From a virus (taxonomy: Duplodnaviria > Caudoviricetes), in IMG/VR virus record IMGVR_UViG_3300028048_000042: a DNA stretch of 64,000 nt; one strand, given 5' to 3'. The notes beneath the pieces are model-generated. The model saw only the letters and a program-made list of their open reading frames with translations. It did no database searches and was not told the DNA's origin. This document shows, piece by piece, positions 51,331 to 54,848 of the stretch. Each line of letters starts with the position of its first letter. The stretch's first letter is position 1. Both the position numbers and the translations under genes were made by a program.

Positions 51331-53895
51331 ATGGTTCAGTTGGACTTAGATAATGTCTATTTGAAGATTACAAATTTAGATAAAGACCCTGAAATGAAAC
51401 TTTGGAATGAATTAAGTTTTCAGGTTCAGGTTTATGGTCAGCAAGAAATTCATTATAGACATTTGTATAATCGAAAAACGAAAAAAACTTATGCAGGTTT
51501 GATGGATTATGTGGTTGATTTTTTCAAAAAAGAAGAAATTGATTATCAATTGATTGACCACCGCACCAAACATGAGAGTAATGCAGATTTTAGTTTGGTT
51601 GATTATATAGATAAAGAAAACAACATTGAATTAAAACTTCGTCCTTATCAACAGGAAATTGTTGATAATTGTCGTGAGCGTGAAGTAATTCAGGCAGCGA
51701 CAGGAGCAGGCAAGGCGTTACCGCTGTATACTCCTATTCTTACACCTGATGGATGGAAAGCAATGGAAGATATTCACGTTGGCGATACTGTATATGATGA
51801 AGACGGTAAAGAAACAAAAGTCATTGGTGAATTCCCACAGGGGAAACTCGAAGTTTGGGAATTGGAATTTGATGACGGAAATACTATTGAATGCAGTAAA
51901 GACCATTTGTGGAAATTTTGCATAGTCAACAAAAAGTCTCGTGAGAAAAGCGAATGGTTTGAAAAAACAACAGAAGAAATGCTTAAATTGTTAAAAGACA
52001 ATGAGCTGTTTATCCCTGTTGTTAAACCAATTGAAATGTCTAAGAAAAATCTTCCATATCACCCATATTTGGCAGGTCAAATTTTCGCAGAAAAAGAATT
52101 GAAATTGGGAAAATATGCCAATCGCTTTTATGAAATGACTAAGGATTTTTCACAAGAAGAATTGGATAAGCTGTACGCATTTGATAACTTTAAACAATAT
52201 GTGTGGTCAAGCATTGCAGATAGACAAGAATTCTTAAAAGGATTAACCGAAATCATTGATGGTAAAAGTGTTGCAGAGCGTTGGGACTGTGATTTTGAAA
52301 CCATAATGGAATTTAAATTTTCAAAAGCTGAAAAAACCGAATTTGTATATAGAATTTTTTGCAGTTTAGGATTTAGCCCTGTGTGGGACAAAGATGATTT
52401 GTCTTTCAGCGTTGGTTTTATGGACGATGATTTTAATGTTGAATATAACAATAACGAGCAAATGTTATATTATCATATTGAAAATATTTATTCAATTAAC
52501 CATAAAACAGAAATGAAATGTATTGCAGTGGATAGTCCGAAGAAAACATATGTTTGTCAGAATTACATTGTAACGCATAATACTTTAATGATGGCTGCAA
52601 TTATTGCAAAATTCAATGTAAAACCTGTGTTTGTTTTTGCTGATAAGATTGGACTTTGTATGCAATTAAAGCAGGAAATTGAAAAATTCTTAGGTGTAGA
52701 AGTTGGACTTGTTGGTGATGGTATTGAAGAATACAAAGACATTACAGTGGTATCTTTGCAATCGGCAAAAGAGGAACAAATTCAAAAAGCAAAAATGATT
52801 TTGTTTGACGAATGCTTACCACCAAAAGCCAAAGTTATGCTTGCTGATGGAACATATAGTGAAATTAGCAGGATTGTAACGAGGTTAAAAAAAGGTGAAC
52901 AAATTAGGGTCATGTCTTATAATGTTGACACAAAACAATTTGAACCAAAATCTGTTATTAATTATGGAAGAATGCAAAAAAAAGACAGAAAAATGGTTAG
53001 AATTAACATTAGACAGGCAGATGGTACATTAAAAACCGTTACTTGTACTGACAATCATAAAATTTGGGTTGAAAGTTTAAAACAATATATTCCTGCCAAA
53101 GATTTGGTGAGTGGGCAAAAGGTTGTTTCTGTACAAAGAAAATACAAATGTGAAGAGTGTGAGAAAGTTTTTGATTCACATTTGGTTTTGGGTGCTCACA
53201 AGTCTTCTGCTCACGGAGAACTTAACAAAAAAAAGAAGTTTAAATGTGAAGTGTGTGGGGAAGAATTGTTTTGTAGTTTACCAACATATAAAGCCCATGT
53301 AAAATCTCATGATGTGGAATATCGTCAACTTCGAGGTAAACATATCAGTATTGCAAAAAAGATTTTTTACGCTGATGAAGAACGTTCAAAATTTGCAAGA
53401 GAATATATGAGTGAGTATATGAAACAAAACAATCCAATGGATAGGCAGGATGTCATTGAAAAAATGGTTCGTTCACGCAAAGAATATTTTGATAATATGA
53501 CAGATGAAGAATACAGTAATTTTGTAAGAAATTTTATCAATGCTTCTCCTACTTCTTTTAAAGAACCAACGCACCCTGAACGAGTGATTATGAGTTTAAA
53601 TATCCCAAATTTAGAGTATAATGGTTCTGTTGAAGATTCAAAAACATATAGATTTAAGAAAGACAATTCTTTAAAAAAATCTGCAACACCTGATTTTATC
53701 TACTATGACCCTATTACAGGTGTCGAAAAGTTTGTTGAGTGCTTCGGTGAACATTGGCATAAAAAAGGTGAAGATATTGCATTGGAAATGGCTTATAAAA
53801 ATAATGGATATGAAGCTCTCGTGTTGTGGGAATATGAGCCGTTAGAAAAACAGATTGAAAAACTTGAAAAGTTTTTGGGGGTGACAATTAGATGA
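51331..53895 (+). CDS. SF2 (UvsW/Rad25-like) helicase, N-terminal part, with intein 1 and N-half of intein 2
   Basis: LRPYQ Q-motif; ATGAGK|T Walker A interrupted at 51715; ILFDE| motif II interrupted at 52813. Confidence 0.88.
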   Translation: MVQLDLDNVYLKITNLDKDPEMKLWNELSFQVQVYGQQEIHYRHLYNRKTKKTYAGLMDYVVDFFKKEEIDYQLIDHRTKHESNADFSLVDYIDKENNIELKLRPYQQEIVDNCREREVIQAATGAGKALPLYTPILTPDGWKAMEDIHVGDTVYDEDGKETKVIGEFPQGKLEVWELEFDDGNTIECSKDHLWKFCIVNKKSREKSEWFEKTTEEMLKLLKDNELFIPVVKPIEMSKKNLPYHPYLAGQIFAEKELKLGKYANRFYEMTKDFSQEELDKLYAFDNFKQYVWSSIADRQEFLKGLTEIIDGKSVAERWDCDFETIMEFKFSKAEKTEFVYRIFCSLGFSPVWDKDDLSFSVGFMDDDFNVEYNNNEQMLYYHIENIYSINHKTEMKCIAVDSPKKTYVCQNYIVTHNTLMMAAIIAKFNVKPVFVFADKIGLCMQLKQEIEKFLGVEVGLVGDGIEEYKDITVVSLQSAKEEQIQKAKMILFDECLPPKAKVMLADGTYSEISRIVTRLKKGEQIRVMSYNVDTKQFEPKSVINYGRMQKKDRKMVRINIRQADGTLKTVTCTDNHKIWVESLKQYIPAKDLVSGQKVVSVQRKYKCEECEKVFDSHLVLGAHKSSAHGELNKKKKFKCEVCGEELFCSLPTYKAHVKSHDVEYRQLRGKHISIAKKIFYADEERSKFAREYMSEYMKQNNPMDRQDVIEKMVRSRKEYFDNMTDEEYSNFVRNFINASPTSFKEPTHPERVIMSLNIPNLEYNGSVEDSKTYRFKKDNSLKKSATPDFIYYDPITGVEKFVECFGEHWHKKGEDIALEMAYKNNGYEALVLWEYEPLEKQIEKLEKFLGVTIR
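51715..52581 (+). mobile_element. Class 3 intein (289 aa) with degenerate LAGLIDADG region
   Basis: Ala1 (ALPLYTPILTPDGW), block B DHLW, block F KCIAV, block G VTHN|T. Confidence 0.85.
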
Positions 53896-54026
53896 TTTAT
53901 TGTGAGAGCTTAGAAGGTGTAGTTGAATCTGTTGAATATATTGAAAATGATAAAACTCAATTTGTTTATGATTTGACTGTTGCAGATAACCATAATTTTG
54001 TTACAGAAGATGTTGTTGTGTCTAAT
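52813..54026 (+). mobile_element. Intein 2, split over two ORFs, carrying a Zn-finger/Vsr-like endonuclease
   Basis: CLPPKAKVMLADG and CTDNHKIW in ORF1; VYDLTVADNHNF..VSN|C in ORF2; ATGA overlap at 53892-53895. Confidence 0.85.
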
Positions 54027-54848
54027 TGTCATCATATACCTTCTGCGACTTGCGTTGACGTTGCCAATAAATGTAAGGATGCATATTATCGCATTGGTGT
54101 ATCTGCAACCCCTTGGCGTGATGCAGGTGATGAAATGCTTATTGAAGCCTGTCTTGCAAGAAAAAAACAAGGTGTAAGTATCAATGCAAGTAAGTTGATT
54201 GAACTTGGCTATCTTGTTAAACCTGATATTTATTTTGTGCCTATTAAACAGGTGTTTAAAGGTAAAAATTACAATGCCCTTTATAATCAGGCGATTGTTG
54301 AAAATAATACAAGAAATAAAATTATTTACAAAATTGCTGAACAGATGTATAATCGTGATAAACACATTCTTATCTTGTTTAAAACAATTAAACACGGTGA
54401 AGAAATGCAAAAACAATTGTTGAAACGTCTTGGAGAAAAGGTTACGCCAATCCGTGTAATTAATCCTAAAAATGGTAAAGAAACAACAATTCGTGTAAAG
54501 AATGTAGAAATTCTTTCAGGTGTTGATGATTCATTGCGCCGTACTGCTGTATTTGAAGCAGTAAAACAGGGAGTGTGTCGTTGTCTTTTGGCTTCTACTA
54601 TTGCAGATGAAGGACTGGATTTACCAATTCTTGATACATTGATTCTTGCAGGTGGTGGAAAATCATCTACACGAGCTTTTCAACGTGTAGGTCGTGTAAT
54701 TCGCTTGTATAAAGATAAAACTAAGGCTATAGTTTTTGATTTTATTGATTATACACCCATGTTGCGTAGACATTCACGAGCAAGACAAAAATATTATGAA
54801 ACAGAACCGTTGTGGGATTTACATAAATTTGTTGTAAATCCTGATTGA
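53892..54848 (+). CDS. Intein-C plus SF2 helicase C-terminal part
   Basis: 45-aa IntC then CHH, GVSATPWR (III), TIADEGLDLP (V), FQRVGRVIR (VI); SD GGGGTGA upstream. Confidence 0.88.
   Translation: MIYCESLEGVVESVEYIENDKTQFVYDLTVADNHNFVTEDVVVSNCHHIPSATCVDVANKCKDAYYRIGVSATPWRDAGDEMLIEACLARKKQGVSINASKLIELGYLVKPDIYFVPIKQVFKGKNYNALYNQAIVENNTRNKIIYKIAEQMYNRDKHILILFKTIKHGEEMQKQLLKRLGEKVTPIRVINPKNGKETTIRVKNVEILSGVDDSLRRTAVFEAVKQGVCRCLLASTIADEGLDLPILDTLILAGGGKSSTRAFQRVGRVIRLYKDKTKAIVFDFIDYTPMLRRHSRARQKYYETEPLWDLHKFVVNPD

Follow-up and report, generated by a model that had tools for sequence, protein, structure and literature searches.

A probable natural split intein with an EDxHD/Vsr-like nuclease fused to its N-terminal half in a phage helicase gene

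Three forms of intein, full-length, mini and split, are distinguished in a 2020 review (PMC7765530). The described systems that come closest to the locus considered here are the fractured genes of phages, e.g., gp41-1, gp41-8, and NrdJ-1, where every locus has a non-coding region of 27–51 nucleotides (nt) between the N-terminal portion of the intein (IntN) and the nuclease gene, and where in-frame integration of the nuclease by loss of its flanks was proposed only as a model (Dassa 2009; PMC2677866). The EDxHD family of homing endonucleases was described in the same work and by Taylor 2011 (PMC3239194), and a 2025 survey reports VSR-like nucleases only with split inteins, or in antisense (10.1101/2025.01.02.630785). 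The present locus occupies positions 51331–54848 of a 64,000-nt stretch of DNA, referred to as the window, from IMG/VR virus record IMGVR_UViG_3300028048_000042 (Duplodnaviria; Caudoviricetes). The gene of a superfamily 2 (SF2) DNA helicase with ResIII and Helicase_C domains is here divided over two open reading frames (ORFs), and it is highly likely that motif II (DE|CH) of this helicase harbors a functional split intein of natural origin. The locus belongs to a giant phage that is uncultured and has Bacillus phage G as its closest cultured relative (58% identity in the C-terminal half of the helicase); a megablast search of the locus against 50,697 phage records gave no match.

A helicase gene divided within motif II

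Both ORFs are on the + strand. ORF1 (51331–53895) encodes 854 amino acids (aa) comprising the N-terminal half of the helicase, a contiguous intein, IntN, two zinc fingers, and a nuclease, and ORF2 (53892–54848) encodes 318 aa comprising the C-terminal portion of the split intein (IntC) and the remainder of the helicase. Pfam places ResIII, i.e., the N-terminal half of an SF2 helicase, in ORF1 and Helicase_C in ORF2. The second part of the N-extein (52582–52812; residues 418–494) ends in ILFDE, the first half of motif II; ORF1 reads ...KMILFDE|CLPPKAKV... at this point and runs on as CLPPKAKVMLADG..., the beginning of the intein. The second half of motif II, CHH, opens the C-extein (54027–54848; 273 aa plus stop), which carries the Helicase_C domain, and ORF2 reads MIYCESLEG...DNHNF...VVVSN|CHHIPSAT. 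IntN (52813–53133; residues 495–601), delimited by alignment with contiguous inteins, by its charges and by the modelled interface, has Cys1, block B as T573-x-x-H576, and a basic strand, KMVRINIRQ. It continues, with neither stop nor spacer, into two C2H2-type zinc fingers (53134–53310; residues 602–660) and further into a helical region with an EDxHD/Vsr-like nuclease (53311–53892; residues 661–854), the 194 residues after the fingers reading ...PDFIYYD...VECFGEHWH...KFLGVTIR. IntC (53892–54026; 45 aa), delimited by alignment with contiguous inteins, has an acidic strand, VVESVEYIE, D27 and H34 of block F, and S44-N45 at its end.

The 3' end of ORF1 reads ...KFLGVTIR-TGA, and the TGA (53893–53895) is part of an ATGA (53892–53895) in which the start of ORF2 overlaps the stop of ORF1. 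A ribosome-binding site, GGGGTGA (53878–53884), is located within the last nuclease codons (FLGV), 7 nt upstream of the ATG. The division of motif II into ILFDE and CHH over two ORFs, the ATGA overlap and this Shine-Dalgarno sequence had all been pointed out in an earlier reading of the same DNA (hereafter the original prediction), and each is present in the sequence as described there. As the TGA ends ORF1 and ORF2 is in the -1 frame relative to it, block A to block G of the intein are not encoded as one contiguous polypeptide. The two frames are open together only at 53892–53894, and since a TAG (53889–53891) closes the ORF2 frame directly upstream of the ATG, an indel that fuses the two ORFs is possible only within 53892–53894.

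An intein-free allele is found on a viral contig (L002) that is 83% identical and has the same flanking genes. It reads ILFDECHHVPAAT, i.e., ILFDECHH is uninterrupted, and GAGKT of its Walker A motif is intact as well; this allele fixes the extein boundaries and identifies the insertion as one that is precise, in frame and within a conserved host motif, as is characteristic of inteins. According to alignment with contiguous inteins from the same site, the splicing residues are all retained: Cys1 (C495) and T573/H576 in ORF1, and D27, H34, N45, and the +1 Cys46 in ORF2. This is the set that defines class 1 inteins (Cys or Ser at position 1, TxxH in block B, Asp and His in block F, a C-terminal Asn, and a +1 nucleophile). 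The Pfam family Intein_splicing matches both ORFs, below its cut-off. As in other natural split inteins, IntN and IntC are on separate translation products with a conserved break, the break separates block B from block F, at the place where the endonuclease is inserted, and the strands expected to pair are oppositely charged. There are 10 D/E and 1 K in the 45-aa IntC, compared to 21 K/R and 10 D/E in the 107-aa IntN, which agrees exactly with the counts made by hand in the original prediction.

Conservation of the break and fit of the two halves

The two frames differ by one base, and a frameshifted nested intein does exist (L007), broken inside a zinc finger; both are in keeping with a sequencing or assembly indel, or with a recent pseudogene, so that the intein would really be contiguous or the helicase dead. 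This explanation is hardly credible, as the identical stop/start is found in independent assemblies and in lineages of near-saturated synonymous divergence, as the break is at a domain boundary with a ribosome site and with a TAG shutting the ORF2 frame upstream, and as the ratio of nonsynonymous to synonymous substitutions (dN/dS) is about 0.1 throughout. P0004, from a different sequencing run, has the same 854-aa product, 99% identical to ORF1, and on its contig the next gene likewise overlaps by 4 nt. L003, which is 79% identical, has the same architecture minus the contiguous intein of ORF1 and the same ATGA, with TAA replacing TAG. In a lineage about 51% identical (P0006/L013) the fused ORF1 ends at the same domain boundary, and IntC is translated from its own ATG with an overlap of 23 nt; L013 was obtained by a metagenome scan for the P0006 lineage, and a scan of viral contigs for P0006 found nothing. 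The search for the same break in homologues that the original prediction called for was thus rewarded in P0004, L003, and P0006/L013. Ribosome sites equivalent to GGGGTGA are present in L003 (GGGGGTGA), in L013 (AGGAG, also within the FLG codons), in L011 (GGAGGTGA), and in the terminase contigs L004 (GAGGAG) and L006 (GAGGAA), described below.

Between the window and L003, dN/dS is 0.08–0.13 in IntN, the fingers, the nuclease, IntC and both exteins, and dS is 1.2–1.6 in all parts except the 45-codon IntC (0.53). Near-saturated synonymous sites combined with low dN/dS demonstrate that the layout has persisted through a long divergence and that every part is under selection. Splitting at this site is also widespread, since about 47 of the best 120 clusters of ORF2 homologues are C-terminal halves that open with a 37–53-aa IntC.

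The frameshift in L007 (2440–2540) is within a zinc finger of the contiguous finger-nuclease intein of a DEAD helicase and has no ribosome site; it may stem from a sequencing error or from recent decay, and serves as an example of an incidental break, unlike the domain-boundary break in the window. P0138 at first suggested the reverse arrangement, in which the nuclease would be joined to IntC; this reading was rejected as L007 shows a contiguous intein broken by a frameshift in the finger. P0104 begins at a contig end. An in-frame run of the P0006 tail (NIYENSISI) into IntC was also dropped, as L013 has a separate ATG in another frame with the 23-nt overlap. A comparison of L013 and L014 gave no evidence of a recent intein swap on near-identical exteins, the exteins having only 83–84% DNA identity, and reading TGA as Trp gives ORF1 only 6 further codons before a TAG.

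Two long, oppositely charged strands were proposed to act as a zipper in fractured genes (Dassa 2009; PMC2677866). In a predicted complex of the two halves, modelled with 5 extein residues on IntN and 8 on IntC, the interface score ipSAE was 0.74, compared to 0.00 for the best of three controls; in the calibration of the tool 58 of 80 solved complexes and 2 of 110 mismatched pairs attained this mark, and as split-intein complexes have already been solved, the pass may reflect likeness to them and is no proof that this pair binds. Contact agreement was at least 93% across three runs, pLDDT (predicted local distance difference test) of the partner was at least 72, and the most confident modelled contacts were between VRINIR of IntN and VVESVEY of IntC. 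The original prediction took charge complementarity as the mark of a split intein with a polarity opposite to that of DnaE; the complementarity is indeed present, but the polarity, basic N and acidic C, is not new as it is already found in gp41-1 and gp41-8 (PMC2677866).

The nuclease of ORF1 is a member of the EDxHD/Vsr-like family of homing endonucleases, as judged from profile comparison and a predicted structure. A search of residues 661–854 against 1.84 billion representative proteins gave 195 relatives, and in an alignment of 62 of these E750, P787, and D788 are invariant and E803, W809, and H810 nearly so. The 62-homologue profile matches the catalytic domain of I-Bth0305I (3R3P) with an E-value of 3e-7, followed by Vsr (E-values 0.002–0.004), which bears out the proposal in the original prediction that IntN is fused to two C2H2 fingers and a Vsr-like nuclease. 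In the hidden Markov model alignment PDF is placed on Asp51 of Vsr, IEvfGxYWH on IFTHGCFWH, and E814/D815 at the place of Vsr Asp97, so that the composite catalytic residues E, D, H, and D of the EDxHD family are present together with a Glu at the position of Vsr Phe62. The structure of the nuclease is predicted with a pLDDT of 95.6, and the top hits of VIA-align include 3HRL (Z 8.0), 3R3P (Z 7.8; root-mean-square deviation 3.0 over 87 residues), and 1CW0 (Z 6.5). Searches of Pfam, PHROGs, and, with the single sequence, the PDB returned nothing for the nuclease part, for which the homologue profile was needed. For the two fingers (residues 605–628 and 637–660) the Pfam hits were below threshold, and the PDB matches were to designed zinc-finger proteins; free-standing relatives of the nuclease have three or more fingers. 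EDxHD/Vsr-like nucleases are also nested in frame in contiguous inteins (P0026, P0029, P0031, P0033, P0036, P0059, P0061, P0076, P0101), the hosts of which are helicases, UvrD-like proteins, and clamp-loader/DNA polymerase III subunits.

The split intein is real and conserved and, as judged from sequence and modelling, very probably functional. ORF1 would give a single chain with the N-terminal half of the helicase, IntN, two C2H2 fingers, and the EDxHD/Vsr-like homing nuclease, and ORF2 would be translated by coupling at the ATGA, from the ribosome site inside the last nuclease codons, to give IntC and the C-terminal half. The basic strand of IntN and the acidic strand of IntC would then zip into one HINT fold, and trans-splicing would ligate FDE to CHH. 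The excised product would be IntN, fingers and nuclease holding IntC, effectively a full-length intein in two pieces, and its nuclease probably cleaves intein-free alleles and thereby promotes homing. It is conceivable that the reassembled HINT fold takes part in target recognition, in which case the product might be a two-chain homing enzyme.

Some observations weigh against a working split intein of this kind. The penultimate intein residue is Ser and not His, which is also the case in several contiguous relatives. The nuclease frame is interrupted by a frameshift in one contig of the 51% lineage (L013 860–970), in which IntN, IntC, and the exteins are intact, and the nuclease can therefore decay. 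Foldseek against the PDB alone gave only weak matches, to the PD-(D/E)xK (restriction-endonuclease) fold. The missing penultimate His would also fit a non-covalent clasp, where the halves associate through the intein pieces without splicing, and such assembly is reported for the fractured phage gene of Aeh1 NrdA (PMC3045599). A clasp is nevertheless quite unlikely, since the splicing nucleophiles and the residues of blocks B and F are all kept, just as they are in contiguous relatives, for which splicing is obligatory. It is equally unlikely that a contiguous precursor is made by programmed frameshifting, as a slippery heptamer is lacking, the codons at the junction are not the same among relatives (AGA, AAA), and an upstream -1 shift would meet TAG or TAA. 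Trans-splicing is thus preferred, and with the break recurring in four lineages, the purifying selection and the IntN–IntC model, the proposal in the original prediction that the DECH motif can be completed only by trans-splicing of a natural split intein holds.

The Walker A motif of the same helicase (GAGK|T) holds a second, contiguous intein (51715–52581; residues 129–417), which has LAGLIDADG-like motifs and lies outside the split element. The part of the N-extein that precedes it (51331–51714; residues 1–128), aligned with the intein-free L002 and with gp221 of phage G, has GAGK of Walker A at its end. The Ala1, DHLW, KCIAVD, and THN|T of this intein are hallmarks of class 3 inteins, and it looks like a member of that class. 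It is absent from P0005, L002, and phage G, and a homologous intein is present at the same site in P0010. This intein would also be spliced out, in cis, and the mature helicase consequently requires one cis-splicing and one trans-splicing event. Once both insertions are removed the helicase is 478 aa, and intein-free homologues are 477–495 aa. Elsewhere in the window, neither the nuclease nor the intein parts have paralogues.

Alleles of the DE|CH site and their origin

The DE|CH site is found in eight states in this helicase and its relatives. It is empty in L002, and contiguous mini-inteins are present in sibling phages (P0008, P0010, P0012, P0015, L014). In L010 the allele is fractured in the classic way with all parts on the same strand, i.e., an IntN gene with its stop, a free-standing gene for a multi-finger nuclease (P0018), a 64-nt gap, and the IntC gene. 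In L009 the nuclease gene (P0016) is antisense: a three-finger EDxHD nuclease gene (677–1555, + strand) lies between IntN (1547–1699, - strand) and IntC (3–551, - strand). The three-gene layout with stop and spacer is thus seen in L010 and L009 and not in the window, where the nuclease is instead fused in frame to IntN. A nuclease-deleted derivative of the window layout is found in L011 and L012 (Logan ERR5683758 and ERR5683766; two samples). Both are without the equivalent of about 53160–53853, i.e., about 0.69 kb of finger-nuclease coding sequence (L011 500–600), and retain a remnant of the first finger (KYKCEECG) along with the final 44 nt of the nuclease gene, on which GGAGGTGA and the ATG are located; they are plain split inteins caught just after loss of the nuclease. 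In Bacillus phage G (L001; JN638751, 3286–5918) gp221 and gp223 each provide one half of the helicase, and the split is at the same site: gp221 terminates in IntN, gp223 has a 94-aa extension before IntC, and a 73-aa ORF (gp222) lies between them; the split intein is unannotated in the published genome. Last, in more distant helicases finger and nuclease are fully nested in a contiguous intein (P0033, P0059, P0076, P0101). An N-terminal extension of 94–150 aa ahead of IntC is seen in gp223 and in many relatives (P0184, P0199, P0208), and neither the 94-aa extension of gp223 nor the longer one of P0184 is similar to the nuclease profile.

In an unrooted tree built from 62 nuclease domains, one clade (SH-like approximate likelihood ratio test, SH-aLRT, 96) unites the window with P0005 and P0006 and is sister to P0016–P0019, the free-standing genes of fractured alleles (SH-aLRT 98), and the nested nucleases form a separate clade (SH-aLRT 97) that also contains the terminase forms fused to IntN. 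The splicing parts of the window have 45–58% identity to the mini-inteins of sibling phages and 23–38% to the nested inteins, and no contiguous protein with a nuclease of the window clade was found among products of 469–1495 aa. The tree together with the closeness of the splicing parts to mini-inteins favors an order in which a free-standing gene invaded a mini-intein and the stop and spacer preceding it were then lost. From these comparisons it appears more likely that a free-standing nuclease gene became fused to IntN than that a full intein was fractured. A free-standing zinc-finger nuclease gene would have invaded a resident mini-intein and fractured the helicase gene, the stop and spacer before the nuclease would then have been lost with fusion to IntN as the result, and the 3' end of the nuclease gene, with its ribosome site, start and stop, would still serve the downstream half. 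The original prediction regarded the locus as an intermediate stage of gene fracture. It does appear to be an intermediate, as L011 and L012 have deleted the nuclease from the same layout; the nuclease, on the other hand, more likely began as a free gene, which first broke up a mini-intein and later became joined to IntN.

The same split intein could instead stem from a full-length intein with a nested zinc-finger nuclease, in which the border of nuclease and IntC acquired a stop and a start. The same DE|CH site is indeed occupied by contiguous inteins that have a finger and EDxHD nuclease nested in them (P0033, P0059, P0076, P0101), and the break in the window is exactly where the nuclease meets IntC in those proteins. 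The terminase forms fused to IntN, moreover, fall within the nested clade, and for these genes the reverse route is suggested. The window nuclease, however, is sister to the free-standing genes of fractured alleles of the same helicase and not to the nested ones, the splicing parts are nearest to mini-inteins, and a contiguous protein of this nuclease clade is missing among the products mentioned above. Since the tree is unrooted, and the direction from fused to free thus formally possible, origin from a nested intein keeps a minor but real share of the probability; on balance it is unlikely, and invasion of a mini-intein by a free gene is the preferred order.

The layout is not confined to helicases. 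The genes for the terminase large subunit in P0040 (L004), P0060 (L006), and P0025 consist of N-extein, IntN, zinc ribbons, and the same nuclease, with a shared ...EEFL boundary, and in L004 and L006 the next ORF starts at a 4-nt or 19-nt overlap with an IntC of 36–37 aa, where GAGGAG or GAGGAA in the last nuclease codons acts as ribosome site. It is tempting to speculate, albeit with somewhat less than even confidence, that the half-integrated state is stable and maintained by selection, representing a general evolutionary route of inteins rather than a fleeting accident, that it arose independently in helicase and terminase genes with IntC restarted from the 3' end of the nuclease gene, and that the conserved codons at the end of this nuclease family (...EEFL or ...KFLG) serve at the same time as a portable ribosome site and start codon. 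If so, a mini-intein could be invaded with an immediately viable outcome, and the portable signals would outlast deletion of the nuclease.

Comparison with known systems

The window and its relatives display nearly the whole path at one site, i.e., empty, mini, fractured, half-fused and nuclease-lost, and thereby provide natural examples of steps that Dassa 2009 proposed but did not observe. The value of the locus lies mainly in this evolutionary series, which the window element anchors. The series also suggests that a selfish nuclease gene can bring along the translation signals that keep a broken host gene working, and shows that annotated genomes such as that of Bacillus phage G harbor an unrecognized split-intein helicase. 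The ORF1 product would furthermore be a natural zinc-finger nuclease of the EDxHD type, and the strong charge complementarity of IntN and IntC makes them a candidate new pair that could plausibly be used as an orthogonal tool for trans-splicing. In the literature searched, of which coverage was incomplete, no description was found of a natural split intein with a nuclease fused to one half.

The fractured genes (Dassa 2009; PMC2677866) share with the window a phage gene of DNA metabolism as host, an intein split at the endonuclease insertion site, and a Vsr-like nuclease on the same strand. In both, the 3' end of the nuclease gene overlaps the start of the IntC gene, by 4 nt in the window and by 6–69 bp in the paper, and the charges are complementary, with the basic N and acidic C also known from gp41-1 and gp41-8. 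The fractured genes are three genes with stop and spacer, whereas the window has two, with IntN in frame with the nuclease. The window locus also differs in its host, an SF2 helicase split at DE|CH, and in the predicted use of C2H2 fingers for DNA binding. I-Bth0305I (PDB 3R3P; PMC3239194), the EDxHD prototype, has the same composite E, D, H, and D and the extra Glu at Vsr position 62; it is encoded by a group I intron and binds DNA through NUMOD/helix-turn-helix elements, while the window nuclease is attached to one half of an intein, with two C2H2 fingers and a helical region ahead of it.

Full-length inteins, e.g., PI-SceI, also have splicing domain and nuclease in one polypeptide made from the signals of the host gene, and by analogy the excised product of the window would carry both activities as theirs does. 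They differ in that the window chain is interrupted between nuclease and IntC, so that splicing has to be in trans, and in that its nuclease is EDxHD and not LAGLIDADG or HNH. The cyanobacterial DnaE split intein (Ssp, Npu) is likewise a natural intein in two pieces with electrostatic zippering of two long strands, but its halves are at distant loci, there is no nuclease, and the polarity of the charges is opposite. Compared to the sorting of inteins into three forms (PMC7765530), the window element is full-length and split at once. Its layout matches half of step IIIa, proposed but unobserved in Dassa 2009 (PMC2677866), and the order of events favored here corresponds to steps II and half of IIIa of that model, with the later loss of the nuclease in L011 and L012 corresponding to step III.

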